Source: an uncultured Bacteroidota bacterium (GTDB lineage Bacteria; Bacteroidota; Ignavibacteria; UBA10030; UBA8401). From it: a stretch of 64,000 nt of DNA. A program made the position numbers and the translations under genes. The stretch is taken from positions 261,889 to 325,888 of the forward strand of contig CAWGZY010000002.1 in assembly GCA_963827085.1 (NCBI GenBank), in the 5' to 3' direction. Below, piece by piece: positions 1 through 62,700 of this stretch. Each line of letters begins with the position of its first letter. Positions within the stretch are counted from its first letter, which is position 1. The notes beneath the pieces were generated by a model that was not told where the DNA came from, searched no databases, and worked only from the letters and a program-made list of their open reading frames with translations.

Positions 1-879
1 GCACCGAGGACCGTGGGTTTGCCGCGGTGCCACCACTCGACAAAGAGCCACGAAAGTGTTGCGGCAGCGGCGGCAAGATGCGTGGCAACAAAAGCGGAAG
101 TTGCGAGTGCGCCGGAGCCGAGGGCGCTCCCCGCGTTAAATCCAAACCACCCGAACCAGAGGAGTGCCGCACCAAGAAGCGTCAGAGTCAGGTTATGCGG
201 AGGCATCAATTCTCCGCTGTGTCCTCTCCTCTTGCCGATGATAATCGCCGCGACAAGAGCGGAGACTCCCGAGCTGATGTGAACAACAAGCCCTCCTGCG
301 AAATCGAGAGCGCCCAAATTATGAATCCATCCGCCGACTCCCCAAACCCAGTGTGCGATTGGTGCGTACACGAACGTAGACCAAAGGACAATAAACACGA
401 GGTACGTCTTAAATTTAAACCGTTCGGCGAATGCGCCCGTGATGAGTGCGGGAGTTATAACCGCAAACATCATCTGAAAAATCATAAACAATTGATGAGG
501 GATTGTGGCCGCATAGTCGGGGTTCGGTTCCAGCCCGACGCCGCGCAACCCCGCCCACTGCAATCCGCCGATAACGTGTCCGATATCCGGCCCGAACGCA
601 AGGCTGTAGCCGAACAGGATCCACTGGACGGAGATAACGCCGAGAGCGACAAAGCTTTGCATAACTGTCCCCAGAACATTCTTTTTCCGCACCATGCCTC
701 CGTAAAAAAGAGCGAGACCGGGTGTCATGAGCATAACAAGTGCGGTGGAGACCAACATCCACGCCGTATCGCCGGCGTCAATTTTTTGAACAGGTACCGC
801 GGATTGATTTTGTGCCGGCACCATAGCCGGCGTTAAGAAAAGCAGTAAGAATAGAATTGAAGCAGGAAATCGTCTCATT
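1..879 (-). CDS. amt: Ammonium transporter (Amt family), partial. The C-terminus lies beyond the window start. Missed by the ORF track because no stop codon falls inside the window.
   Basis: Reverse-strand translation from the ATG at 877-879 gives MRRFPASILFLLLFLTPAMVPAQ...DTAWMLVSTALVMLMTPGLALFYGGMVRKKNVL...DFAGGLVVHISSGVSALVAAIIIGKRRG...GWFGFNAG. These are canonical Amt/MEP motifs and the frame stays open to position 1. Confidence 0.9.
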
Positions 880-1207
880 GCAGACCTCATCTTGTTCGTT
901 GGAATAGTGCAGCATCATTTTCCACTTCCTTAGTTTGAGCTCTATATTTGCGTGAACATCCGGAAGTGAACATCCTTTTGAACCGCCAATTAACTAGTTA
1001 GGAAATTTTCCGAACCAAGATAAGTATTTTAGGAATTATTTCAAATAGGCTTAATTAAATTACTTGCTTCTTTCGCTTGTCTTTCGGAAAGTGATTCCTT
1101 ATTTTCAATCCCGGGCTAACGATGCAAATCTCATAAACGTCTATTTCAACGTATAATGCGTTTTTTGAAATGGATATTCGCCCCTTTTTTATCTCTTTAT
1201 ATAGATA

Positions 1208-1306
1208 GAGACATCTGAAAAATTGCCTCTCGCCAAGCCGCTGGCGAAGCCATCCCCCTCGGGATTTGCGCGAGACGTATTTTTGGAATTATTCAGAAGT
1301 CTCAGA
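1208..1306. repeat. MITE-like intergenic repeat, family 1 (TIR gagacWtctgaaWaat), copy A
   Basis: Left end agagacatctgaaaaat, right end attcagaagtctcaga. Near-identical to the copy at 5075-5170. Confidence 0.7.
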
Positions 1307-1389
1307 TAATGAATAAGGAAGATTTGTTATATTAGAAACGGTTGAAATCCTTAAACGGAGATATATCACACAGCAATGGAACCGATTGA

Positions 1390-2655
1390 ATGGGAAATAC
1401 ATTCTATAATGACTTCGATACGCAGTGTTTGACCAAAAAACGGGCTGCAGACTATCGTTCGCCTTTCGAAATCGATCGCGACCGGATCATTCATACATCT
1501 GCATTCAGAAGATTACAGGCGAAGACCCAGGTTTTTCTTTCGGGGGAATACGACTTCTACAGAACTCGGCTGACTCATTCGCTGGAAGTCGCCCAAATTG
1601 GCCGGTCGATCTGCAAGTTCCTCCAGCACGAAAGCCCCCTGCTTTCGAAAGAATTCACTGTTGACTCGAACCTCGTCGAAGCAATCTGCCTCTCGCACGA
1701 CCTCGGCCATCCTCCGTTCGGGCATTCCGGAGAACGGACGCTTAATGAATTGATGAAACCATACGGCGGCTTCGAGGGGAACGCCCAGACCATGCGCCTG
1801 ATCACGGAGACCATCTATTCTTCCGGCGGAGAACGGCAAGGGATGAATCCAACGCGCGCATTTCTCGACGGCATTTTGAAATACAAGACACCACACGGAG
1901 AATTGGAAAATCCGGAGAACCACTTTATCTACGATGAACAGCGGAGCTATGTGGAATTCGCTTTCGGCGGTGCTTCGCTCCCGAAAGAACTAAGCGCCGG
2001 GAAAAGACTCAATTCGTTCCGCAGCATCGAATGCCAAATCATGGACTGGTCGGATGACGCGGCGTATTCACTCAACGACCTCGCAGACGGCATTCACTCC
2101 GGCATCATCAATAAAGAGAAGATTGAACGATGGGCCGGCGAACAGCCGCTATCCGGCGATGAGAACCGCTCGCTCGAAGATATTCTTGATGCGATGACGG
2201 CGGGACAATTGGAAAAAATCATTGCAGGGAAGATCGGACATTTCATCCAGGCGTGCAGCATCAGCGAATGGAAAAACTTTATGAGCGGGACGACGAATCG
2301 TTATCGTTTTCGATTGGGAATTGATCAATCGATTGAGCGGGAAGCGGAATTGTATAAAAAAATATCCATCGATCTGGTCTTTCATTCGCCCCAACTTCAC
2401 CAGCTTGAGCACAAGGGGGGATATATTCTGAAAAAAATTTTCAACGCTTTCGAAGAAAACTATCTCGGAAAAGAAAATTCAAAAACAAATCTGCTGCCCC
2501 GGGATGCCGAGGAGAGCGTGCGGACCACGGCAAACCCCCGCCAGCGCATGCGGTTGCTGTGCGACCATATTGCCGGCATGACCGACGGCTTTGCCGTCCG
2601 CACCTATAAACGGCTCTTCGATGCTGAGTTCGGCTCGCTGGCAGATCTGATTTGA
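1390..2655 (+). CDS. dgt: dGTP triphosphohydrolase-like HD-domain phosphohydrolase
   Basis: 421 aa with an HD motif (LTHSLEVAQIGR...SHDLGHPPFGHSGE), typical of the dGTPase family. Confidence 0.85.
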   Translation: MGNTFYNDFDTQCLTKKRAADYRSPFEIDRDRIIHTSAFRRLQAKTQVFLSGEYDFYRTRLTHSLEVAQIGRSICKFLQHESPLLSKEFTVDSNLVEAICLSHDLGHPPFGHSGERTLNELMKPYGGFEGNAQTMRLITETIYSSGGERQGMNPTRAFLDGILKYKTPHGELENPENHFIYDEQRSYVEFAFGGASLPKELSAGKRLNSFRSIECQIMDWSDDAAYSLNDLADGIHSGIINKEKIERWAGEQPLSGDENRSLEDILDAMTAGQLEKIIAGKIGHFIQACSISEWKNFMSGTTNRYRFRLGIDQSIEREAELYKKISIDLVFHSPQLHQLEHKGGYILKKIFNAFEENYLGKENSKTNLLPRDAEESVRTTANPRQRMRLLCDHIAGMTDGFAVRTYKRLFDAEFGSLADLI

Positions 2656-2659
2656 TTTT

Positions 2660-2911
2660 TCAATGCGCCGCTTTCAACATCTCCGGCGTAAACTTATTCA
2701 GCTTTACGACCCTCGCTTCTTTCCGGCTCATTGACGGAACAACCATCCTCGCCTGCATCTCGTTCTCCGCTTCGATGATGACGAAACCTGTGTGGTCGCC
2801 GGAGGCGCATCCCCATTCAAAATGTGTCAGGTATCCCGGCGCTTCAACTTGCTTGAGGACATGGGCACAATCATCTTTTGTATGGGGCGATTCTATTAAG
2901 TATCTATCCAT
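2660..2911 (-). CDS. Small conserved hypothetical protein (83 aa from the ATG at 2911, or 105 aa from 2977)
   Basis: ORF with an aagggag RBS 6 nt upstream of the ATG at 2911. No recognisable family. Confidence 0.4.
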   Translation of the reverse strand: MDRYLIESPHTKDDCAHVLKQVEAPGYLTHFEWGCASGDHTGFVIIEAENEMQARMVVPSMSRKEARVVKLNKFTPEMLKAAH

Positions 2912-3003
2912 GCTAACTCCCTTCTTCCTATAGAACCAACTGGCTTCTTTCAACCATTGAAAAAAATTCTCTCTCAAATCCCAAGGGGGATGGCCTCGCC
3001 AGA

Positions 3004-3058
3004 CGCAAAGTCGCTAAGATTTCTTGATGAAATCCATTTTGCGTCTTAGCGACTTTGC
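3004..3058. repeat. Long perfect hairpin (16-bp arms cgcaaagtcgctaaga / tcttagcgactttgcg), family 4. Related to the hairpin at 40320-40399 and to the interior of the element at 56224-56358.
   Basis: Inverted repeat read directly in the sequence. The core gcaaag..cgctaaga is shared with the other copies. Confidence 0.7.
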
Positions 3059-3091
3059 GCAAGGTGTTGAATCCCAGATTTTTCATACGTC

Positions 3092-3700
3092 TTACTTCTT
3101 CGCGTGTTCGGCGTAATCGTAGGGGTAAAAAAGATACAGTGCGTCCGAACTTTCCGGAGACCACTCCGGCACCTTATGTTTCACCGGCTTGATATGGCGA
3201 AGATAAACAACGAGTGCGTGGCGGTCTTCCTCGGTCATGTTGGAAAATCCCGGCCATGGCATGGTCGTCGGCGCGAAAAATCTCCCATCATGCGAAATAC
3301 CGCTGCGCAACACCAGCTTCACCTCGTCATCCGTACGCCGGGCAAGACCTGTTTCGGCGTCAGGAGTCAGATTTCGTGAAAAAGAAGTTCCGGCTTGTTT
3401 AAGTTCAAACTTGGCTCCGCCCGCGAGGAATTCATTCCAGTTCGGCCCCTGGTCTCCCTGCGGCGTGTGGCAATCGCTGCAATCCGAGTATGACATGATA
3501 TATTGTCCCCGCTGGGCAAGAAGTCGTTCAACGGGATCGTCGATTTTCTCCAGCGACGATGCGACCGCTTCTGCGTGAGGGTTGCTAAATGCCTCACGGG
3601 GAAGCAAATCAAAGGGCGGAATAAGATACAGGAACGCAAGAAATCCTATCACTATCAAACATGCCGCTACGATACCGACCCATTTCAATATCTTCTTCAT
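3092..3700 (-). CDS. Membrane-anchored mono-heme c-type cytochrome
   Basis: N-terminal TM helix and a single CxxCH (CSDCH). 4-bp ATGA overlap with the upstream cytochrome gene. Confidence 0.8.
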   Translation of the reverse strand: MKKILKWVGIVAACLIVIGFLAFLYLIPPFDLLPREAFSNPHAEAVASSLEKIDDPVERLLAQRGQYIMSYSDCSDCHTPQGDQGPNWNEFLAGGAKFELKQAGTSFSRNLTPDAETGLARRTDDEVKLVLRSGISHDGRFFAPTTMPWPGFSNMTEEDRHALVVYLRHIKPVKHKVPEWSPESSDALYLFYPYDYAEHAKK

Positions 3701-5049
3701 GGCCGCACCTCCTTTGCTCGGTCAACACGCATCGCAAAATTTTTCTCTGCACCGGAAGAATTCTGTGATACGGGTTTTTGCTGATCATCCGCTTCTTTCA
3801 TGGGATAGACCGGCGTCGGAATCTGTTCTTTCAGGATTAGCATTCTAAATTTACCCCACAAATACGAGAAGATGTTCGGCTTATCAGGATCGGGGATTTT
3901 GTGACTCACGGCAGGAACCGTCCGCAGGTAGGCGACAATGGCGTTTTGATCATCTTCTTTTAATGCAGCAAGCGCCGCCCACGGCATCGGGAAGGGGAGA
4001 AACTTCCTTCCATCGCGCGAGATTCCCTGAGTAAATGCTCTTTTGATTTCCTGATCGGTCCAGTCCCCCAATCCGGTTTCCTTGTCCGAAGTGAGGTTCC
4101 GCGCAACGTACTTTCCGAACGGATAGAGGTCAAACGTCAATCCTCCCGATAACTGCGACCCCTCGACAATATGGAGATCTTCGGTATATCTGGAATGACA
4201 TCCCCCGCATCCGATGGTCCGGACGAGGTATTTTCCCCGCTGGACAGGGTCAGCCTTTGCTTGAGCATCGAGCTTGCTATAAAATTCCTTGACTTCATTT
4301 TCATTCATCTTCCACACGGGTTTGCGTGCGATTGAAACGATGTAGTTTGCAAGGTTCCACATCTCTTTGTCGCTCGCTGTGCCGGCGTACGACGGCATCG
4401 GTGTTCCGTCAATGCCTGTGCTGAACCGCAGATAAATATCTCGCGCGGTCGCCCCTCCGCGGAAGGTCCATGGCTCCGTCAGGTTCACCGCATTGGTTTC
4501 AAAATTCCATTCATCCTGAAAATCTGTTGCCGCCGCGCCCGTTCCGGCGCCGTCGGTTCCATGACAATCAGCGCACTGCAATTTTGCGTAGACTTTTTTC
4601 CCGGCTGCAATGCTTGCGGGCGAATACGGAACTGGAGTTCCTACACGAATGGGACGGGGTTTATCTTTTTGAAAGCGGGGCGAGAATGTCTTCACATAAT
4701 CGACCACTTCTTTTAATGAATCGCCTTTGATGAACGGCGACCAATCCGGCATTGAGGTCCCATGCAAGCCGTTTTTTATCGTTGTTGTCAGGTCTTCATC
4801 CGTCGGAAGGCTTCCGGATTCCGTCGAGCGAAACTTGAACATGCCAGAAGTAAAATTCCGGGGTCGGGGATTGAGCAGCGCCGAAGCGACGCCATCCCCT
4901 TTTCCCGTTGTCCCATGACATTGAACGCAATGCATAGTATAGATGGATTTTCCCACGGCGGACCGGGAAACCGCTTGCGGAAAGGCGGTCGACGCGCTCC
5001 ACATCAATACCGCAAAAACCATACACGTGGTTTTGGAAAACGGTTTCAT
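3697..5049 (-). CDS. Tri-heme c-type cytochrome (three class-I cytochrome c domains)
   Basis: Signal peptide MKPFSKTTCMVFAVLMWSASTAFPQA. Three CxxCH motifs (CVQCH, CADCH, CGGCH), each in a GxxGxG context. Start chosen at the ATG at 5049 rather than 5103. Confidence 0.8.
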   Translation of the reverse strand: MKPFSKTTCMVFAVLMWSASTAFPQAVSRSAVGKSIYTMHCVQCHGTTGKGDGVASALLNPRPRNFTSGMFKFRSTESGSLPTDEDLTTTIKNGLHGTSMPDWSPFIKGDSLKEVVDYVKTFSPRFQKDKPRPIRVGTPVPYSPASIAAGKKVYAKLQCADCHGTDGAGTGAAATDFQDEWNFETNAVNLTEPWTFRGGATARDIYLRFSTGIDGTPMPSYAGTASDKEMWNLANYIVSIARKPVWKMNENEVKEFYSKLDAQAKADPVQRGKYLVRTIGCGGCHSRYTEDLHIVEGSQLSGGLTFDLYPFGKYVARNLTSDKETGLGDWTDQEIKRAFTQGISRDGRKFLPFPMPWAALAALKEDDQNAIVAYLRTVPAVSHKIPDPDKPNIFSYLWGKFRMLILKEQIPTPVYPMKEADDQQKPVSQNSSGAEKNFAMRVDRAKEVRP

Positions 5050-5074
5050 TATTCCTCCGTGAAATGAAAAAATT

Positions 5075-5170
5075 AAGACATCTGAAAAAATCCTGCACGC
5101 CAAGTCGCTGGCGAAGCCATCCCCGGGATTTGCGCGAGACGTACTTTCAGGAACATTCAGAAGTCTCAGA
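5075..5170. repeat. MITE-like repeat family 1, copy B. Directly abuts the family-2 element at 5171-5346, forming a composite.
   Basis: aagacatctgaaaaaatcc ... cattcagaagtctcaga. The interior matches copy A. Confidence 0.7.
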
Positions 5171-5346
5171 TTATTAACTTATGTTACGCAAAAGCTCAAT
5201 GTTATCGCCACGAAGTCACAAAGTCATTAAGAAAAATAACCTTTTTTATTAATGGACTTAACAGAATTGAGCTTTCCCTAAAAAGTTTTTGTGGCTTCGT
5301 GCCATCGTGGCAAAGCTTTTAAACTCTGCGTAACATCAGTTATTAA
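5171..5346. repeat. MITE-like repeat family 2 (TIR ttaacttatgttacgca / tgcgtaacatcagttattaa), copy H1
   Basis: Shares more than 80% of its length with 25961-26176. Internal inverted repeat gccacgaagtcacaaag / ctttgtggcttcgtg. Confidence 0.7.
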
Positions 5347-5352
5347 TTCAAT

Positions 5353-5652
5353 TCATTCAACCACTGTGTAAATTTCGCGCCTGCCTGAATCGACCAACGG
5401 CGTAAACTTAGCATGATACCACTCGCCGAACTCTTTCATTCCAAGCTCGCTCTTCAACGACTGCTCAAAGGCTGTCAGATTTTCGAACGTATTCTCCAGG
5501 ATGAATATGTAGAACGGACCGGTGCAATCAGTGAGAACACGGCTTTCCGGAAGATTGTATTTCTTGCGAAGCGCTGCGAATTCTTTCCACGCAGCCTTCG
5601 CTTCTTTGGCTTTTCCAAATTTCAATTGAAATACCTCGCGGACGACTATCAT
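5353..5652 (-). CDS. Small alpha+beta protein, NIPSNAP/Dabb-like (99 aa)
   Basis: MIVVREVFQLKFGKAKEAKAAWKEF... RBS aaggag 6 nt upstream of the ATG at 5652. Confidence 0.45.
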   Translation of the reverse strand: MIVVREVFQLKFGKAKEAKAAWKEFAALRKKYNLPESRVLTDCTGPFYIFILENTFENLTAFEQSLKSELGMKEFGEWYHAKFTPLVDSGRREIYTVVE

Positions 5653-5910
5653 AGAAATCTCCTTTTGTTTGTTTAATTGGAATAAAAAGCACGAGAGCAT
5701 TGTTGCTGAAAAAAAACAGCAATACCTTGTGCTTAATGAATTTCGCGTTGGAAGTGATTTATACTAGCACGACCGGCTTACGATATGAATTCAAGCCCTA
5801 CATGCATTGAATCTCCCCGGTCTTTTGCCTACATTTGTGCGGTAATGTATGTTTTCGTAAAGATTAAGTCAAGAATAATTTCTTGCCACCCCCTTGAATT
5901 TCGACAATCC

Positions 5911-7578
5911 ATGACAATGCAGCCGCTCGTAGATTTTTTTGCAGAAAACCAGCTTCTTCTTTTCTTTACCGTCATCGGGCTCGGCTACCTTGCCGGCCAG
6001 ATCAAAGTGTTCGGGTTCAGCCTTGGCGTCTCGGCTGTGCTCTTTGTCGGGATAGCGTTCGGCGCGCTTGATAAAAGGCTCAGTCTCCCCGAATACATCT
6101 ACATCATCGGGCTTGTTCTTTTCGTGTATGCCGTCGGGCTGCAATCGGGTCCGAGCTTCTTTGCTTCATTCCAGAAACGCGGATTGCACACAAACGGACT
6201 CGCTGCACTTCTGCTCATCGCCGGAGCGTTGATGACGGTTGTCATTTGGAAAGTTCTTGGCATCTCTCCGTCGAGTGCGGCCGGACTTTTTTGCGGCGCG
6301 TTGACGAGCACTCCGGCACTCGCCGCAACTGTTGAGACTGCAAAATCTCTTTCTATAAACCTTCCGCGCGATGTTGCCGACCTCAACGCCAATAGTCCGG
6401 TAGTAACATACGGCCTTGCGTATCCGTTCGGCGTGCTTGGAGTCCTCTTATGGTCCTTTGTTTTCATAAAGATTTTTAAAATAGACTTTGCAAAGGAAGA
6501 AGCAACGCGCATGAGGGAATCCGGTTCGGACATCATCGTCAGCCGGACGTTTCATATAACGAATCCTGCAATCAATGGAAAAAGCGCCGAGGAATCCCTA
6601 CAGCTTCTCGGCCAACCGGCATTCACACTCAGCCGGATCAAAAAGGGAGCGAGCATCGAAATCGTCAGACCGGACACGATACTCTCCACGGGCGATCGGA
6701 TAGTAGCGGTTGGAACGCAGGATGCACTTGAGCGGGCACGAATATTGTTCGGCGAAGAGGCGGCGGATCATCTCCCTCTCGACAACACCGGAATCGATTT
6801 TCGGCGCATCTTCGTTTCCAACACATCTGTTGTCGGCAAACGTATTCACGAGCTTAATCTAGAAAAAGAATTCGGTGCCACAATCACCCGCTTGCGCCGC
6901 GGCGATGTCGATTTTGTTCCATCGCCGGATACCATTCTTGAAATGGGGGACAGAATCCGCGTTGTCACTCGTCTCGAAAATCTGGACCGCATCACAAAAT
7001 ATTTCGGCGACTCGATGAAAGCGATCTCCGAAACGGATTTTCTTTCCATTTCGTTCGGCATCGTACTGGGAGTGATGGTTGGCATGATCCCTCTTCCGCT
7101 TCCGCACGGAATGGTGTTTAAACTCGGATTTGCCGGCGGACCGCTCGTCGTTGCCCTCATCCTCGGCCGGCTCGAACGCACCGGGCCTATCCTCTGGGCG
7201 CTTCCATTCAACGCAAATCTTGTACTGAGGCAAACAGGGCTTGTCTTTTTCCTCGCGGGAATCGGTACAAAAGCCGGTTTCGGCTTTGGGACAATATTTC
7301 AATCGGGAGGATGGGAATTGATCGCGGCGGGTGCGCTCATAACCACATGCGTTGTCGTGTTAACAATACTTGTCTCCTATAAATACCTGAAGCTACCGAT
7401 GTCCGCAGTCGTAGGAATCGTGGCCGGCATGTCTACACAATCGGCTTGCCTTGCCTATGCGAACCAACAGACGCAAAACGAACAGCCGAACATCTGGTAC
7501 GCCACCGTATATCCGGCCTCGATGATCGCTAAAATCATCCTTGCACAAATCATCGTTTCTGTGCTGTGGATGCTATAA
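5911..7578 (+). CDS. YidE/YbjL-family (AspT-like) transporter with two TrkA-C (RCK_C) domains
   Basis: Duplicated transmembrane halves flank two cytoplasmic RCK_C-like segments (SRIKKGASIEIVRPDT..., TRLRRGDVDFVPSPDT...). Start taken at the ATG at 5911 (MTMQPLVDFF). Confidence 0.75.
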   Translation: MTMQPLVDFFAENQLLLFFTVIGLGYLAGQIKVFGFSLGVSAVLFVGIAFGALDKRLSLPEYIYIIGLVLFVYAVGLQSGPSFFASFQKRGLHTNGLAALLLIAGALMTVVIWKVLGISPSSAAGLFCGALTSTPALAATVETAKSLSINLPRDVADLNANSPVVTYGLAYPFGVLGVLLWSFVFIKIFKIDFAKEEATRMRESGSDIIVSRTFHITNPAINGKSAEESLQLLGQPAFTLSRIKKGASIEIVRPDTILSTGDRIVAVGTQDALERARILFGEEAADHLPLDNTGIDFRRIFVSNTSVVGKRIHELNLEKEFGATITRLRRGDVDFVPSPDTILEMGDRIRVVTRLENLDRITKYFGDSMKAISETDFLSISFGIVLGVMVGMIPLPLPHGMVFKLGFAGGPLVVALILGRLERTGPILWALPFNANLVLRQTGLVFFLAGIGTKAGFGFGTIFQSGGWELIAAGALITTCVVVLTILVSYKYLKLPMSAVVGIVAGMSTQSACLAYANQQTQNEQPNIWYATVYPASMIAKIILAQIIVSVLWML

Positions 7579-7614
7579 GCAGATGTCGGACATCTGTTGA
7601 AATTGCGAGCATGT

Positions 7615-7927
7615 GACCTTCATCTCGTTCCCAATCTCTGATTGGGAACGGAGTAAAGCTGAAGCTCCGCTTCACGGGTGGGTCGAAGGGACATCATTGG
7701 CTGCAACATTCGTTCCCAAACGGAGTTTGGGAACGAGATAAACTAGATAAAATCTGCATTTTAATTATATACCGAACATGAATTTTTATCATAACTTTCC
7801 GTTGACTTTCATCTCGTTCCCAATCTCTGATTGGGAACGGAGTATGGCAGAAGCTCGGCTTCACAAATGGAACGAAGGGACGACATTGGCGGCACAATTC
7901 GTTCCCAAACGGAGTTTGGGAACGAGA
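7615..7927. repeat. Tandem pair of a ~125-bp structured repeat (family 3): copy 1 at 7615-7738 and copy 2 at 7805-7927. Each is flanked by ~31-bp inverted ends that are themselves hairpins (gttcccaat ctctg attgggaac, and gttcccaaa cggag tttgggaac).
   Basis: Copies are ~88% identical. Each is preceded by a tgacYttcatctcg motif. A family-1 TIR fragment (ggacatctgttgaaattgc) sits at 7589-7608. Confidence 0.7.
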
Positions 7928-8058
7928 CAATAACAGCCGATCCGTAGCAGCGGGAGAGTTTAGGAACCAGATAAAAACAAGATAAAAGCGGCCGGGCTCA
8001 CCCAAATTGCGGCATACACTACTCACTTTTCGCTTCAAATCTTTCTCGCAACTTTCCG

Positions 8059-8781: not shown

Positions 8782-9879
<1,098 letters not shown>

Positions 9880-13901: not shown

Positions 13902-15557
<1,656 letters not shown>

Positions 15558-15566
15558 TTAAAAATT

Positions 15567-15700
15567 GAGACTTCTGAAAAATGCTGGAGTAATGTCATTC
15601 TGAGGAGCACAGCGACTTCCGAAGGAATGCCTTCGGCATTCTCCCGCCGCTTTTCGGCGTGATCAGAATGACATTCCATTACCAATTATTCAGAAGTTTC
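15567..15700. repeat. MITE-like repeat family 1, copy C, with a large internal hairpin (gtaatgtcattctga ... tcagaatgacattcc)
   Basis: Left end gagacttctgaaaaatg, right end attattcagaagtttc. Confidence 0.65.
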
Positions 15701-17702: not shown

Positions 17703-18952
17703 TACGCTTTCTCCGCAGCGCGAATTCTCTTTTCGATCGACGGGTGGCTGTAAAAAAGAAATTCTACCACCGGATGGGGGGCCGTATCGGCAAGGTTCAT
17801 GTCGGCCAGTTTCCTCATCGTTGACATGAACGCCGGGGCATTTCCCGTTCTCTCAAGCGCATAACGGTCGGCTTCGAACTCATATTTCCTCGACAAAACA
17901 TTCGACAAGGGCGACGTCAACAGCGAATAGACTCCAAGCCAGAGAGCCAACAGCGGCAGTGCCGCAAGCTGATCGACAGAAGAGAAACCAAACCATCCGA
18001 GCGAGAAAAAATAAAGTTTCGAAGTAATAAAAAGCCCGGCATAGATGCTCAGCGTCCCCACCAGGATGTTTTTCCAAATGTGCCCGTGGACGTAATGGCC
18101 GAGCTCATGCGCAAAAACAGTTTCGACCTCGTCATCCGAAAAGTGCTGCATCAGCGTATCGCCTAAAATGATCCTCTTCGATTTTCCGATGCCCGTAAAT
18201 CCTGCATTCGCTTTCTTCGTTGTCTTGCTAAGGTTGAAGGTGAATATTCCCGTTACGTTCATGCGGGTGTTCTTGCACAGGGAGAGAATTCGTTCTTTCA
18301 GAGCGTCGTTCTCCAGAGGAGTGAATTTGTAGAAGAGCGGCATGATGAACACCGGAGCAATCTTAGAAAGAAGCATCGACACAACAAACATCGCCGTCGC
18401 GACCGGCAGCCACCATAATGCCTGGTACGTTCTCAAGAAAAAATAAAACAGAAGCACCAACGGCACCGCGATAGGAATGCTGACGAGAAATGCTTTGACC
18501 TGTTCCCACAGCCATTGAAAGAAACTCTGGTTCGACAAATTATACCGATGTTCGAGAACGAAGCCAGAGTAAAAACTCAGCGGGAAAGAAATGACGCCGC
18601 TCAGCACGCCGAGCAACGCTCCAAAAAGAAGCAGGGCAACATACGGCGACTGGGTGTATAAATGGACAAAATTCTCCATGCGGAGAGAAAAGCCTGTCAT
18701 GACAATAGCCAATGTAACAATAAACGAAAACGTTGTCCCGATAAGAGACAACGTCAGCTTGATGCGGCTATATTTTTTTGCTTGAGATGATGGTGCCGGC
18801 GTGTTTGTGGGGTCTGCTTCAACGGCACGAAAGATTTTCATGGACGAAACAACGCGAGGGTTGGTCTTCTGTGGTTTTTCAATAATACAAAAAGTGGAGA
18901 AGAAAAACAAGGAGAAGATTGAGGGGGACGTGAAACATGTTTCACGGAACAC
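17702..18952 (-). CDS. M48-family (Ste24/HtpX-like) zinc metalloprotease, polytopic membrane protein
   Basis: HELGHYVHGH zinc motif and multiple TM helices. Stop overlaps the plsC start (TAATG). The start may instead be the internal Met of MKIFRAVEAD. Confidence 0.75.
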   Translation of the reverse strand: MFRETCFTSPSIFSLFFFSTFCIIEKPQKTNPRVVSSMKIFRAVEADPTNTPAPSSQAKKYSRIKLTLSLIGTTFSFIVTLAIVMTGFSLRMENFVHLYTQSPYVALLLFGALLGVLSGVISFPLSFYSGFVLEHRYNLSNQSFFQWLWEQVKAFLVSIPIAVPLVLLFYFFLRTYQALWWLPVATAMFVVSMLLSKIAPVFIMPLFYKFTPLENDALKERILSLCKNTRMNVTGIFTFNLSKTTKKANAGFTGIGKSKRIILGDTLMQHFSDDEVETVFAHELGHYVHGHIWKNILVGTLSIYAGLFITSKLYFFSLGWFGFSSVDQLAALPLLALWLGVYSLLTSPLSNVLSRKYEFEADRYALERTGNAPAFMSTMRKLADMNLADTAPHPVVEFLFYSHPSIEKRIRAAEKA

Positions 18953-25960: not shown

Positions 25961-26176
25961 CTTAACTTATGTTACGCAAAAGCCCAATGTTATCGCCACG
26001 AAGTCACAAAGTTACTAAGAAAAACAACCTTTTTTATTAATGCACTTAACAGAATTACGATTTCCTTAAAAGTCTTTGAACTTGGTGCCTTCTGCCAGCG
26101 GCATCTCCCAACGGGATCGCTTCGCGAACGTTGGGAGTGGCAAAGCTTTTAAACTCTGGCAACATCAGTGATTAAA
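25961..26176. repeat. MITE-like repeat family 2, copy H2
   Basis: ttaacttatgttacgcaaaag ... ggcaaagcttttaaactctggcaacatcagtgattaaa. The interior carries a tctcccaacgggatcgcttcgcgaacgttgggag hairpin that is shared with 58385-58565. Confidence 0.7.
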
Positions 26177-28262: not shown

Positions 28263-28396
28263 CGAGAGTAATTAAAAATTAATAATTAGGAATTATGAAT
28301 TGAAAGTTAAAAGTAGTTGAATTGAGCAGGATCCAATGACCGCGAGGTGTCGGTCCAATTTTTGATTTTTAATTCATAACTACTAATTGCTTTATC

Positions 28397-28469
28397 GTCC
28401 CCATCGTCTAGAGGCCTAGGACCGGAGCTTTTCAAGCTTCTAACACGAGTTCGAATCTCGTTGGGGACA
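28397..28469 (+). tRNA. tRNA-Glu (UUC)
   Basis: GTCCCCATCGTCTAGAGGCCTAGGAC C GGAGC TTTTCAA GCTTC ... ACGAG TTCGAAT CTCGT TGGGGAC A. Closely resembles bacterial tRNA-Glu. Confidence 0.9.
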
Positions 28470-28477
28470 CACAATCG

Positions 28478-28513
28478 CCACTTAATTCGAAAGTTTTAAG
28501 TGGTTTTGTTTTT
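28478..28513 (+). terminator. Terminator after tRNA-Glu (ccacttaa ... ttaagtgg + TTTTGTTTTT)
   Basis: 8-bp stem, 10-nt loop, T-run. Confidence 0.65.
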
Positions 28514-28692
28514 TCATCCCACACCACATTTTGTATAAAAATTAGCAACACTTTATACAAAAGTGATCTGCACCCCAAAAAGTATACACGTAGTTAAGCC
28601 ACAGTTTGCTTGAGCAGTTGATGTTCAAATTGCTCGGACGATAGGTATCCGAGCGCGGAATGCTTGGCATGTGCAAACGGATGGTTTCTATA

Positions 28693-36606: not shown

Positions 36607-36857
36607 AACCGCTTGAGGACCACGTCTTTTATTAATGGTTCAAAATCGTCTACATAGAGATTCTAGGATTTTTTCGAGTCAGAGTTAATAAGGAGTTCTT
36701 CAAAACAAATTAGCTTCGCTCACTTGATGTTTCCATCTTTAATTACTACGTTTTCCCGTGTTAGTTTTTGGAACGGAATTGCTAACAGACTGCTAACACG
36801 GTTCCCGAAAATCACCACGATTTTTGGCGAATCCAGACGAAATTCGATACCGAACCA

Positions 36858-36992
36858 GCTTTTCAAGCTTCTAACACGAGTTTGAATCTCGTTGGGGACA
36901 CACGATAACCACTTAGTTCGAGAGTTCTAAGTGGTTTTGTTTTTCTATCCCACGCCACATTTTGTATAAAATTGGGGACAATTTATACAAAA
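36858..36992 (+). repeat. Diverged duplicate (~87% identity) of the 3' half of tRNA-Glu plus its terminator and downstream ttgtataaa..tttatacaa palindrome. The original is at 28426-28562.
   Basis: agcttttcaagcttctaacacgagtttgaatctcgttggggacac ... ccacttagttcgagagttctaagtgg + ttttgttttt. The stem carries a compensatory a->g / t->c pair. Confidence 0.75.
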
Positions 36993-40204: not shown

Positions 40205-40319
40205 ACTACCTCCTTATGGACTTATTACATCATGTTCATGTGTTGTTGTATCTATGAGTGTTTTCGTTCTCAATGTTCGTCGAGCTAGTGCTGTTTCCGA
40301 TATTAAATCTTGTATTAGA

Positions 40320-40399
40320 ACCGCAAAGGACGCTAAGATCGCAAAGAAGTTTTTGTAGAAAAAACTACAAAAATCCTCGCGTCCTTAGCGACCTTTGCG
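40320..40399. repeat. 80-nt hairpin of family 4 (arms ccgcaaaggacgctaag / cttagcgacctttgcgg) with a nested palindromic loop tttttgtagaaaaaactacaaaaa
   Basis: Read directly. The core gcaaag..cgctaaga is shared with 3004-3058. Confidence 0.65.
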
Positions 40400-40445
40400 G
40401 TGAATTAGTAATAGGAAAACACAATATTTGTTTTGAGAAACAGCA

Positions 40446-40841
40446 TTAGTATCTGATTTCGTTCAATTCTCTTTGCGAGACTTTTCTTAAAAATTCAACC
40501 AGCTCGTTGTCTCCTATTATTTTCCCATCGTACATTCTCTTTCCATCTTCCAATAACGCTTTAATTTGAAAATTCAAATTTGATCTCTCCCTAAATTTAT
40601 ATATTGAGTTTATTACCGTAAGAACCATTGAAAGAAGCGAAGACCATATAATCAATGAGTCAAACGTATTTTGAATGTCAAGAGCGTAGTGTTGTTTGAG
40701 GAGCAACATAGATGGTATCGCCAGAACTATCATGATGCTAATAGCTCCGCACCAATTCCCGACTAGTCTGTTCATTGTGCCCCGTTTGTGTTGAAAATCT
40801 ATTTTTCTTAATAAGTCTTCATACGTTGGATTAATTTCCAT
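40446..40841 (-). CDS. Hypothetical membrane protein
   Basis: 131-aa ORF with two TM helices and low GC. Confidence 0.4.
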   Translation of the reverse strand: MEINPTYEDLLRKIDFQHKRGTMNRLVGNWCGAISIMIVLAIPSMLLLKQHYALDIQNTFDSLIIWSSLLSMVLTVINSIYKFRERSNLNFQIKALLEDGKRMYDGKIIGDNELVEFLRKVSQRELNEIRY

Positions 40842-51177: not shown

Positions 51178-51237
51178 AGAGGCATCTGAAAAATCATCTC
51201 TCGCCAAGCCGCACTTTTGGGATTATCCTGAAGTCTC
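51178..51237. repeat. Degenerate short copy of MITE family 1
   Basis: agaggcatctgaaaaatcatctctcgccaagccgc ... cctgaagtctctg. Confidence 0.5.
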
Positions 51238-56022: not shown

Positions 56023-56074
56023 GAGAGCATCTCCTTTTTAGGGTGCAACAGAAACTATTCCGTTGAATGGTCGA

Positions 56075-56220
56075 CTGATGTTACGCAAAAATCCTTTTTG
56101 ACACACCCCCAACCCCTCTCTCTTTCGCCGCACGCTCACACACAGAGGGGAGCGGCGGGGTGTGTCCTTTGTTTAGTGGAGCACTTCCTTCATAAATTTT
56201 TCAGAATGCGTAACATCAAT
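56075..56220. repeat. MITE family 2, copy H4, in inverted orientation. Abuts the family-1 element at 56224-56358, giving a composite that mirrors 5075-5346.
   Basis: ctgatgttacgcaaaaatcc ... cagaatgcgtaacatcaat. Confidence 0.65.
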
Positions 56221-56223
56221 AAT

Positions 56224-56358
56224 TAGAGACTTCTGAATAATTCCAAAAGTCTGCTCACGCAAAGGTATAGCTTCGCCAGACGCAAAGTCGCAAAATGATT
56301 TAAAAATAGGCTCCTTGCGCCTTGGCGGCTTGGCGCGAGACGATTTTTCAGATGTCTC
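56224..56358. repeat. MITE family 1, copy E, in inverted orientation. Its interior contains the family-4 motif cgccagacgcaaagtcgc.
   Basis: agagacttctgaataattcc ... atttttcagatgtctc. Confidence 0.7.
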
Positions 56359-56473
56359 AATTAACTCTGAATTCCGCGTCAAGCGCGGAATGACATGCTT
56401 TTTCTCTTCATCGACCTCGATCTTTGATGATGGACTTTCACTCTACCTTCCTTTTTGCACCGCAAACATCATT

Positions 56474-58090: not shown

Positions 58091-58384
58091 AACAAGTGAA
58101 GGCTCCTTTTGGTGTCTCAGTTTGTCGGAGAAACGATTTCGTGCCTTAGTAACTCAGTGGCTCATGAAAGTTTTTTCCAGCAACCTGCTGGAAATGCGGC
58201 CGATAAGTTCGACTCTGGGTTTTTCTCCGTGGTTCCCTGAGCCGCTTTTGTGTTTCTCTATGAAACAGTCTTTTGCGACACTGAGTGGCACCGAGATTCA
58301 CAGAGCTCCACAGAGAAAATGGGTTTCCGACCCGATCTTTAGTGCTGTTTCTCAAAAATAATCTTGTATTTTTTTAACCGCGAA

Positions 58385-58565
58385 GACGCCAAGCACGCCA
58401 AGAAGCGATGAGTATAAAGAATTACAATACTCTTGGCGTTCTCCGCGCCTTGTGCCGACCCGAAGGTCCAAAGGACTCCATTGGAGGTTCCCTTGGAAAG
58501 GCATCTCCCAACGGGATCGCTTCGCGAACTTCGTGAGCGGTAAAACACAAGATTATGTATTGGAA
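58385..58565. repeat. Family-2-related repeat fragment. Shares the 30-bp core ggcatctcccaacgggatcgcttcgcgaac with 25961-26176.
   Basis: Exact 30-mer match plus the flanking cgccaag / cttggcg inverted repeats. Confidence 0.55.
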
Positions 58566-59725: not shown

Positions 59726-62700
59726 TCATTGTACGTCAATCGCTTTACGGATCTTCTGTAAAACTTCATCCTGCATATACGGCTTCTGAATAAAATCCTT
59801 CAGCCCGGCCTTGAACATCTCGGACTTCGTTTCCGGATCGAAAAATCCGCTTGCGAAGATTACTTTTGCTTCCGGGTTGATTGCTCGAATTTTCCTGAAT
59901 ACGTCATGACCGCCAAGGGCAGGAAGCCCGATGTCGGAGAGAATAACGGCTATTTCTTTTTGATGGCTCCGGTACATTTCCACTCCTTGCAGGCCGTCTT
60001 CTGCGGTCAATACCGCGTAACCCTTCAAAACAAGAATGCTCTTTGCAAGAGTCCTCAGGACCTCTTCGTCCTCGATCAACAAAATTGTCTCCGTCCCGCC
60101 CGGTATTCCCTCAAGGTTTTTTTTTGCTGCTGCCATTTCTACGCCTGCTCGCTCCGGTATCGGAAGATACACGGTGAAACTCGTTCCTTCGCCGAGTACG
60201 CTCCGAACATCAATAAAGCCGTGGTGGTGTTCCACGATGCCAAACACCACAGCAAGACCTAAGCCGGTTCCTTTTCCGGGACCTTTTGTTGTAAAGAAGG
60301 GTTCAAAGATTCTCTGACGCGTTGATTCGTCCATTCCAATTCCCGTATCGGCGACTTCAACCTTGACATACTGCCTGGCAGTTGCGTTTGTGAATCGCGA
60401 GCTAATAGTTTCACCTTTGACGGCCCTGGTTGTAATTGAAAGCATTCCGCTGCTTGGCATTGCGTCCCGTGCATTCACGAGGAGGTTCAACAACAGTTGA
60501 TGAATCTGGCTCGAATCGGCAACGATCGCGGGTAAATCTTGCTGGAGAGATGTAGAGATGGTGATGGTCTTGGAAAATGTCTCTTGCAGAAGTTTGGTGA
60601 TTTCCCTTATGGTGTCGTTGATTTTAACCGATTCTAAAACTGGTTCAGTTTTCCGTGCAAAGAGCATGAGCTGTTTGACCAACGAAGCGCCGCGCTGCGA
60701 TGCCTTCATAATTGCAGCGACGCTCTCTGCATACATTTTCGAATCTTCCCGCAGGCGTTCCAGGAGGCTTGTATGGCCCATAATGATGCCGAGAATGTTA
60801 TTGAAATCGTGGGCGATCCCACTGGCGAGTGTTCCGATGCTTTCAAGTTTTTGAGCTTGAATTAGCTGTGATTCTAAGGAAAGCTCTGAGGTAATGTCGC
60901 GTTTCACTCCGACATAATTGATGATTTTTCCCTTCTCGTTGAAAACGGGTGAGATGGACGTCTCATCGGTGAACAATGTTCCATCCTTCTTTTTGTTGAT
61001 GAATCTGCCGCTCCATTTTCCCCCCGTGGAGATCGTTTCCCAAAGGTTCTCATAAAACTCGGTGTTTTGCCGTCCGCTTTTCAAGATGCGTGGATTCTGA
61101 CCAATCACCTCCGAACGCCGATGGCCGGTGATTCGTTCAAATGCCGGGTTGACATATTGAACGATGCCTTGGGGATCAGTGACAAGAATGGCTTCTGCAG
61201 TCTGCTCAAAAGCAGTTATCAAGCGCTGCCGTTCTTCTTCAGCTCGCTTGCGCTCGGTGATGTCGCGATCGATGCTGATGGAGTGCAGCTTTCCTCTCCA
61301 AATGATCGGCATGCCCGTGTACTCAATAATATTATCTTTTCCATCAGGCCGAATCCACGAGAAGGAACCCACATATCCCGATCCCGGGGTACGGGATTCC
61401 GAACTCTTGTCTTTTGCTGTGTCTGTAAGGGGTATCTGGAGTCCCAGCGTATTTCCCAGCGTGAGCAGTTCTTCGCGAGTCCGGCCTGCCATGCCGGCAT
61501 ATTGATTATTACACTCGACCAGTCTTCGTTTGGCAGGGTTAGGGTCTTCAATGTAAATACTGATGCCGTCAAAGATATTCTCGAACACCATCCGAAACCT
61601 TTCTTCAGACTCCCGAACTGCATCGTCCACCCGTTTCCGCTCGGTGATATCGGTGATCATCGCAAAGCTGCCGATGAACACTTCTTGACTGTCCATAATT
61701 ACTTTGGCGGAAAACAAGAACCATTTTTCGCTGCCATCTTTGCACCGGAGTCTTCGGTCATACTGTCCGCTTATTCCGCGTTTACGCCGCTGGAATTCTT
61801 CTGCCTGCATGGAACGCTCATCGTCGACCACGAGGTCGATGAACGGTTTGCCGATCAACTCCTCGGGAGCATACCCCAGCATACGCACAACCGCATCGTT
61901 CACCTCGGTTGTTCTAAATTCGCTGTCGAGAAACCATACTCCTTCGAGCGCCGTTTCAATAACGCGCCGGAATTTTTCCTCACTTTTCTGCAGCGCCTGT
62001 TCCGCTTGCTTGCGCTCGCTAACATCGGAGGCAACGCCGACGAGCGCGACGGCACATCCCTTATCATCACGCACAATGGATGTGGAAAGAGACGCGAAAA
62101 ATTCGCGACCGTCTTTTGCCCGGTTCAAAAGTTCTCCGTGCCAGCCATCATCCCGCGCCGCGTTGTAAATTGCGGCGGCAAGATTTGGAGGATTGTTCGG
62201 CGAGTGAAGGATGTTGACATTCTTTCCCAGTATTTCATGCTCGGCGTACCCGTATGTGGTCAGAAACGCATCGTTGACAAAGAGGATGGTGTCATCCATG
62301 TCAGTGATGCTCACACATTCGCCGATGCATTTTACCGTGTGGGCAAGCAAGTTGATCTGTTTCTCTGCCCGCTTGCGCTCGGTGATATCCTCCATGATGA
62401 TATGCACCAGGGTCACCTGATTGTGATCGTCAAGTATAGGGACATACCGCAAATAGGTATAAATGGTTTTTTCCCATTTGGAGGTATACGGATACTCGCC
62501 GAAGCTGGCCCGACCCTTTTCAATACAGGATTTGAGCGCAGCCGAGATGCCGGACTTGATGAGCGGTTGAAATGTCAACAGGTTTATTTTCTTTGTCTCC
62601 TCGACAGATGGGGACCCTAGAATTTGGAGTGCTGCGGGGTTCACCTCAAGGATTTGTCCTGATCCATTCGCAAGCAGGATCCCAAGCGGCGCATGTTCGT

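Follow-up and report, generated by a model that had tools for sequence, protein, structure and literature searches.

Two families of short repeats with inverted ends, termed family 1 and family 2, abut each other at 5075-5339 and again at 56075-56358 of the window, the whole 64,000-nucleotide stretch of DNA from an uncultured Bacteroidota bacterium that was analyzed. What brought them together, twice, is the question raised by this locus. A preliminary description of the DNA had reported both abutting pairs, which were confirmed in the sequence, and had proposed that either the true mobile unit is the composite (~280 bp) or family 2 inserts preferentially beside family-1 termini. It rightly regarded both families as mobile elements bounded by inverted repeats, and the adjacency that it considered nonrandom is probably not due to pure chance. 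The answer favored here, with a probability of roughly 0.85, is that two MITE families were juxtaposed by independent insertions, through a shared preference for AT-rich targets and a small number of short spacers.

The two families and their copies

Family 1 has 16-nt ends (GAGACATCTGAAAAAT / ATTATTCAGAAGTCTC) that differ from each other at 2 fixed positions, is 59 to 141 nt long, and generates 5-bp target duplications. For its end motif, 9 occurrences were counted in the window (1.24 expected), and five copies and a relic are present there (Table 1). The size classes (59, 93 to 96, 103, 112, 119, and 133 to 141 nt) are internal-deletion derivatives of one sequence; the copy at 15567 stands apart, with a different interior. 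A pattern scan of metagenome contigs identified 29 loci, representing ~17 distinct sites in related organisms. Perfect 5-bp direct repeats flank the element at 13 of 22 sites (among the metagenome loci, L124, L127, L128, L132, L134, L138, L139, L145, and L148), and most of the others match at four of five positions. The target consensus of 17 independent sites, ATTTAT-AAWTT-ATAAAT, is an AT-rich palindrome. With its inverted ends, target duplications of fixed length, and many copies, family 1 is a MITE, and it is specific to the lineage of the window. A plasmid search for its parent insertion sequence gave no match. The longest copy (L134:483-1932; 1,450 bp, perfect duplication AAGTT) was ruled out as a parent, as it holds a nested, frameshifted transposase gene of the IS110 family.

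Family 2 has the ends CTGATGTTACGCAAAA / TTTTGCGTAACATCAG, which read CTKATGTTACGCA...TGCGTAACATCAG in the window, and 7- to 8-bp duplications at TTANTAA. The terminal inverted repeats, CTGATGTTACGCA(AAA) / (TTT)TGCGTAACATCAG, contain 0 to 2 mismatches in most copies. The family-2 12-mer occurs 13 times in the window (4.8 expected), and its exact or one-mismatch matches all fall within the four family-2 elements of Table 1. Copies are 131 to 203 nt long in the window and 63 to 294 nt elsewhere, with no coding capacity. The solo copies placed at 25961-26176 and 8786-8930 by the preliminary description exist, with boundaries at 25966-26168 and, for the degraded one, at 8799-8929. The outer bases (TTAAC.../...TTATTAA) then read as part of the inverted repeat are target-site duplication instead; the copy at 5178 has TTATTAA on both sides. 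Similarly, the interior hairpin (gccacgaag...) ascribed to the family characterizes one subfamily (5178, 25966, and 8799), and the interior of the 56075 copy is unrelated to it.

Table 1. Coordinates of MITE copies and target duplications in the window
Feature	Position	Strand	Remarks
Solo family-1 MITE, 96 nt	1208..1303	+	AGATA duplication on both sides
Degenerate family-1 relic	~2975..3093	-	One end recognizable with 3 mismatches
Left family-1 5-bp target duplication copy (AAATT)	5070..5074		4/5 match to AGATT at 5168-5172
Family-1 MITE, short 93-nt deletion subfamily	5075..5167	+	Internal deletion as in the 1208 and L132 copies
Right family-1 target duplication copy (AGATT)	5168..5172		2-nt overlap with the family-2 duplication
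Left family-2 7-bp target duplication copy (TTATTAA)	5171..5177		7/7 match to 5340-5346
Family-2 MITE, 162 nt, interior hairpin	5178..5339	+	Ends CTTATGTTACGCAAAA / TGCGTAACATCAG; fold z = -6.0
Right family-2 target duplication copy (TTATTAA)	5340..5346		
Degraded family-2 MITE	8799..8929	+	Right end intact, left end decayed; just upstream of malate/lactate dehydrogenase gene
Solo family-1-type MITE, different interior	15567..15700	+	AAATT duplication on both sides
Solo family-2 MITE, 5178 subfamily	25966..26168	+	Extra nested ~35-nt palindrome; flanks ACCTTAA / TGATTAA
Solo family-1 MITE, strongly deleted, 59 nt	51179..51237	+	Duplication TGTCA/TGTTA
Family-2-type MITE, 145 nt, unrelated interior	56075..56219	+	Flanking heptamers TGGTCGA / TAATTAA unmatched
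Family-1 target duplication copy (AATTA)	56221..56225		Within family-2-flanking heptamer TAATTAA
Family-1 MITE, long 133-nt subfamily	56226..56358	-	
Second family-1 target duplication copy (AATTA)	56359..56363		

Scanning of a genome collection with a 15-nt end pattern, which is short and gives many chance matches, found a partner end 60 to 440 nt away in at least 26 of the 119 loci listed. Looser matching gave 46 family-2 end pairs among the matches listed, a handful of which are chance pairings. Perfect 7-bp duplications flank 16 of these 46 pairs, a further 10 match at six of seven positions, and some duplications are 8 bp long; the mean flank match over the 46 pairs was 4.96, versus 1.98 in an offset control. 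The ends are present in at least seven bacterial phyla (hosts include Bacteroidota, Ignavibacteriales and Melioribacter, Acidobacteriota, Verrucomicrobiota, Cyanobacteriota, Methylococcaceae, and Anaerolineales) and on an Acinetobacter plasmid, and interiors are unrelated between genomes. Verrucomicrobial contigs (L010:5507-5841, L101:541-6907, and L027) carry many 81- to 84-nt family-2-type elements with GTGATGTTACGCA ends, several of them only a few kilobases apart. A pattern scan of viral contigs for family-2 ends returned coding matches only, lacking partner ends, and a literature search with the end sequences found no relevant match. Family 2 is likewise a MITE, being short, with inverted ends and duplications of fixed length, and the copy at 56075 is exceptional in its flanks.

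Other interpretations of the repeats were rejected. The motifs GTTACGC and GCGTAAC prompted consideration of integron attC sites; these have the order RYYYAAC ... GTTRRRY and form arrays between cassettes, whereas family 2 has the order GTTACGC ... GCGTAAC on both strands and copies scattered among housekeeping genes. REP/REPIN repeats produce no target duplication, and both families have clear ones. Structured RNAs were likewise rejected: an Rfam scan of the window returned two tRNAs only, and neither family matches a described RNA family at its gathering score. Both elements can nevertheless fold into long hairpins (z of about -6 for family-2 copies and -2.0 and -2.5 for family-1 copies). 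Both resemble bacterial MITEs in that they are small and noncoding, with inverted ends, target-site duplications, many intergenic copies, size subfamilies formed by internal deletion, strong hairpins, and insertion into or beside other repeats. Family 2 differs from the usual bacterial MITEs in having near-identical ends in at least seven phyla with unrelated interiors.

Further repeats were observed in the window and its relatives. A palindromic repeat of ~35 to 45 nt (CTCCCAACGGGATCGCTTCGCGAACGTTGGGAG) is nested in the 25966 family-2 copy (26100-26144) and stands alone at 58500-58544. Direct repeats of 128 nt (7614-7741 and 7803-7930; 88% identical), each with inverted repeats of TCTCGTTCCCAATCTCTGATTGGGAACG, belong to another repeat family. 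Yet another family, of ~150 nt, occurs at 58188-58372 and 40286-40448 of the window and in metagenome contigs (L131:25-174 and L142:299-595), with 92 to 93% identity to the metagenome copies; it forms a tandem double in L142 and adjoins family-1 copies in both contigs. The best predicted family-1 targets of the window are at 28268-28380, an unoccupied AT-rich spacer between the two tRNA genes, and at 15547-15561, beside the 15567 copy. Direct repeats with 91% identity (28426-28540 and 36857-36971), the first overlapping the 3' part of a tRNA gene, surround an 8.4-kb segment with genes for a B12-binding MerR-type regulator and for cyclopropane-fatty-acid-synthase-like, amine-oxidase-like, DUF1365, and DUF1295 proteins, two of which look split. 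Sister contigs L120 and L121 diverge exactly at window position 28471 and have a serine recombinase at that point, and the segment looks like a tRNA-linked variable island. Contig L121, otherwise 100% identical, contains a very AT-rich 1.44-kb insertion (L121:16925-18364) at window position 18919-18923; it lacks a transposase gene and is unrelated to the composites.

Junctions of the composites and related sites

In the 5-kb composite, the elements are separated by 10 nt consisting of their overlapping target duplications, AGATT and TTATTAA, and in the 56-kb composite by 6 nt (TAATTA). Both composites have one and the same end of family 1 (the GAGACTTCTGAATAAT side) turned toward family 2, in agreement with the earlier description; family 2 itself, judged from the A-run next to its end, has opposite orientations at the two sites, which corrects that description. 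The pre-insertion spacer at 5 kb was ~27 nt, between a stop codon at 5353 and a ribosome-binding site at 5054-5058, and the composite now lies just upstream of the gene for a cytochrome c, whose ribosome-binding site is 16 nt away. The 56-kb composite lies just upstream of a gene of unknown function (150 amino acids). Genes around the elements are ordinary chromosomal ones (cytochrome c, permease, malate/lactate dehydrogenase, 16S rRNA dimethylase, and sensor kinases). Simple scans for promoters and for terminators gave nothing beyond chance.

If the ~280-bp composite itself transposed, with solo copies as its derivatives, the two composites should be alike, and the shared family-1 end facing family 2 is consistent with this. 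Little else in them is common. The family-1 part is the short form at 5 kb, with the deletion boundaries of the 1208 and L132 copies, and the long form at 56 kb, and the family-2 copies (5178 and 56075) align at their ends only. Junction offsets also differ: the family-1 duplication lies outside the family-2 heptamer, with a 2-nt overlap, at 5 kb (AGATT) and inside it at 56 kb (AATTA). The two outer termini of the composite do not form an inverted repeat. Inspection of the junctions, as the preliminary description had advised, revealed a target duplication for each element, with mismatched family-2 heptamers at 56075, and neither composite as a whole is flanked by a 5- or 7-bp duplication. Solo copies of both families have perfect duplications of their own. 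A family-2 end adjoins family 1 at none of the 17 other distinct sites from metagenome contigs; at one of these 17 (L148), family 1, with a perfect duplication (ATGCT), lies within the interior of a family-2 element flanked by TTACTTA. The composite as a mobile unit is thus already contradicted, and we regard it as extremely improbable, even though the whole 56-kb block is present or absent as one difference relative to a 98%-identical relative.

That relative (L180) has 98.0% nucleotide identity to the window on one flank of the 56-kb site and 92.4% on the other and lacks both elements. The missing block (window 56075-56364) is 290 nt long, exactly the sum of two canonical insertions (145 + 7 + 133 + 5). 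Three relatives of the flanking gene have a different gene order. At the other end of the window, positions 1-7200 are 100% identical to contig_14193 of ENA ERZ25039529 and to L190, which gave no polymorphism. At the 5-kb site, two relatives (L179, with 95% protein identity of the flanking permease, and L139, with 83% nucleotide identity) carry a solitary long-form family-1 copy that is inverted relative to that of the window, with no family 2. Their duplication, AAAAT, is 1 nt off the insertion point in the window. The L- and R-type ends are fully swapped and the subfamily of the window copy itself transposes, which indicates independent hits on one hotspot. The 5-kb spot was therefore hit independently, and in these relatives without family 2.

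These sites also bear on the second proposal of the preliminary description, that family 2 inserts beside family-1 termini. The order is reversed at 56 kb, with the family-1 duplication AATTA inside the family-2 heptamer, and relatives without family 2 show the 5-kb spot to be a hotspot for family 1; the proposal is not supported in that form.

The flanks of the 56075 family-2 copy are anomalous. The left heptamer, TGGTCGA (56068-56074), is present once in the empty site of L180 (L180:2880-2895), and the right one, TAATTAA (56220-56226), has the usual form of a family-2 target and does not occur in the empty allele. The two differ at four of seven positions, all G:C to A:T, which is far too many changes for ordinary mutation given the 98%-identical flanks, and a simple recent canonical insertion does not predict such mismatched heptamers. 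They might reflect a noncanonical event, e.g., donor-flank carry-over. The edges of the block (including 56359-56364) have 3 nt (ACT) in common, so that L180 may equally well have lost the block by slippage. Under either reading, insertion or deletion, the composite is left without a flanking duplication.

A full-length element with family-2 ends

A BLASTN search of the family-2 end consensus against plasmids found a match on plasmid1 of Stanieria sp. NIES-3757 (AP017376.1). The element (60036-61130; 1,095 bp) is bounded by CTGATGTTACGCAAAAG / GAGTGCGTAACATCAG, is flanked by the duplication TTAATTA(A), contains a single reading frame of 361 amino acids, and is apparently a complete insertion sequence. 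The transposase ATG lies inside the left end (CTG-ATG-TTA-CGC-AAA) and the TAA stop codon inside the right end (TGCG-TAA-CATCAG). The protein matches the NCBIfam model for IS701 family transposases (NF049921) with 338.8 bits (cutoff, 250; E = 3.5e-101) and Pfam DDE_5 with 7.4e-17. A second copy of the full-length element with family-2 ends is present in L187. The coding overlap could help to explain why the ends (16 to 19 nt), unlike the interiors, are near-invariant across at least seven phyla.

Two related elements place this lineage. An element on Piscirickettsia plasmids is 48% identical, with the ends CTCACCTTACGCAC/GTGCGTAAGGTGAG and the duplication TTAAATGA, and lacks the overlap of start and stop codons with its ends. 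ISAba11 of Acinetobacter, reported as an IS701-family element (PMC9771954), is a remote homologue (23% identity) with the ends GGACTTACGCA.../...TGCGTAAGTCC; it is reported to generate 5-bp AT-rich duplications, and inserted copies are ~1.1 kb long (bioRxiv 10.1101/2020.10.08.331108). It shares with family 2 the end core TTACGCA...TGCGTAA, compact size, and AT-rich targets, and TTACGCA is therefore a core common to the branch. The Stanieria element is unlike the ISAba11-like branch in having the transposase ATG and TAA inside its ends. In addition, family-2 ends begin with CTGATG, and the 7- to 8-bp duplications differ from the 5 bp of ISAba11 and from the 4 bp of classical IS701 (PMC2266710, Table 1), and therefore the family-2 lineage is a distinct branch of IS701.

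Several other parents were considered. The ISPepr1 subgroup of IS4 has YT-AA-YTT---A ends, 7- to 8-bp repeats, and AT-rich targets (PMC2266710, Table 1), and family 2 resembles it in its 5'-CT ends, duplication length, AT-rich targets, and six of eight conserved end positions. The Stanieria element is, however, 1.1 kb long rather than 1.5 to 1.6 kb, and all IS4 models scored below the cutoff (best, NF049925 with 94.9 bits versus 250), so that IS4 was rejected. Pairs of family-2 ends 1.9 to 4.9 kb apart (L048, L090, L091, and L021) enclose host genes rather than transposases. The IS1249/IS256-like transposase gene that follows a family-2 end in L087 belongs to an element with its own ends, GGGCATAATAGTCAAAAAGTGTTGCT, nested in a family-2 MITE.

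This IS256/IS1249-like insertion sequence occurs at L087:6923-8000 and, around 1425-2495, in L153, L154, and L156. In three different loci it interrupts a hairpin repeat (GTCATTTCGA...TCGAAATGAC), the 5-bp duplication being GAAAT/ATTTC, and in L087 it is located within the family-2-type MITE; it seems to target palindromic repeats.

Family 2 is best explained as a deletion derivative of a compact (~1.1-kb) insertion sequence of the IS701 family, to judge from its ends and duplications. Neither the window nor ~0.9 Mb of retrieved loci yielded a transposase gene for family 1 or family 2, so that their mobilization in this genome, in trans, is an inference. Tentatively, family 2 may belong to a MITE/insertion sequence lineage, compact and IS701-like with the transposase start and stop codons in its ends, that was found in none of the papers searched, although the odds are somewhat against this.

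Target choice and the juxtaposition of the families

In the preferred reading, that of independent insertions, two different DDE-type transposases would move family 1 and family 2 in trans, and each composite would represent two separate insertions in a presumed order. Both families favor AT-rich, roughly palindromic targets, which are rare in this genome of 49% G+C, and few short spacers would tolerate insertions. Every insertion would duplicate its own AT-rich target, so that a target would stay available; at 56 kb, the AT-rich heptamer attached to family 2 would have supplied the family-1 target. A choice of AT-rich palindromes common to unrelated MITE families would build "MITE nests" at few spacers.

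Suitable targets are scarce. The window contains only 13 islands of very AT-rich 15-mers in ~9 kb of intergenic DNA, and the pre-insertion window had only 14 TTANTAA heptamers, among them the 5-kb site. A family-1 weight matrix built without the composite sites was used to rank 63,440 window positions, with the 5-kb site ranked 16th and the 56-kb site 904th. Any two insertions at 5 kb had to adjoin because the pre-insertion spacer was so short. Scarce shared AT-rich targets and tiny permissive spacers therefore explain the 5-kb composite well and the 56-kb composite in part only. By a rough calculation of our own, based on only two composites, the chance of adjacency is ~1e-3 under uniform insertion and ~0.01 to 0.3 when AT-rich targets are allowed for.

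Selection could in principle suffice: insertions would survive only in a few neutral spacers, and adjacency would be pure coincidence with no target preference. The small intergenic fraction of the window and a 5-kb spacer that forces adjacency would fit such a scheme, but it leaves the clear target consensus of both families unaccounted for, as well as the high matrix rank of the 5-kb site, its status as one of 14 TTANTAA heptamers, and two independent family-1 hits within 1 nt in different lineages. It is therefore considered unlikely.

Directional attraction is another explanation to which we give little probability. Here, the transposase of one family would recognize the end or hairpin of the other, as some insertion sequences do with REP/BIME repeats, and family 1 would occur in or at family 2 more often than target sequence predicts. 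In its favor, the AATTA duplicated by family 1 at 56 kb falls within the heptamer attached to family 2, a heptamer that the empty allele lacks, and with a matrix rank of 904 sequence preference alone is insufficient there. The nested family 1 of L148 points the same way, family 2 being rare in those contigs, and other elements nest too: the IS256/IS1249-like element in a family-2 MITE (L087) and the IS110-like gene in family 1 (L134). Against attraction, the 5-kb spot was hit by family 1 in relatives without family 2, family 2 is not found near 16 of the 17 other family-1 sites, and the window itself has three solo family-1 and two solo family-2 copies. Nor is the insertion position relative to family 2 constant, as it falls beyond the heptamer, within it, or in the interior of the element. 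Two cases leave room for a weak attraction of family 1 to family-2 elements.

Some insertion sequences insert into repeated palindromes, e.g., REP/BIME sequences. The present case is similar in that a mobile element is found repeatedly in or at the edge of a small palindromic repeat (56 kb in the window, L148, L087, L134, and L153/L156) and differs in that at least the 5-kb composite is accounted for by a sequence preference for AT-rich palindromes, with no need to invoke recognition of the other element.

Two MITEs side by side are an ordinary phenomenon, and the repeats should be masked and named in annotation as two MITE families rather than as a single composite element. Located upstream of genes, the composites may affect expression. 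The most useful by-products of the analysis are the wide spread of family-2 ends and the IS701-like full-length element with the same ends, and these ends provide a convenient marker of a widely spread IS701-like lineage. Independent insertion, as favored here, would make the locus a worked example of how a shared target preference piles unrelated MITEs on the same spots.
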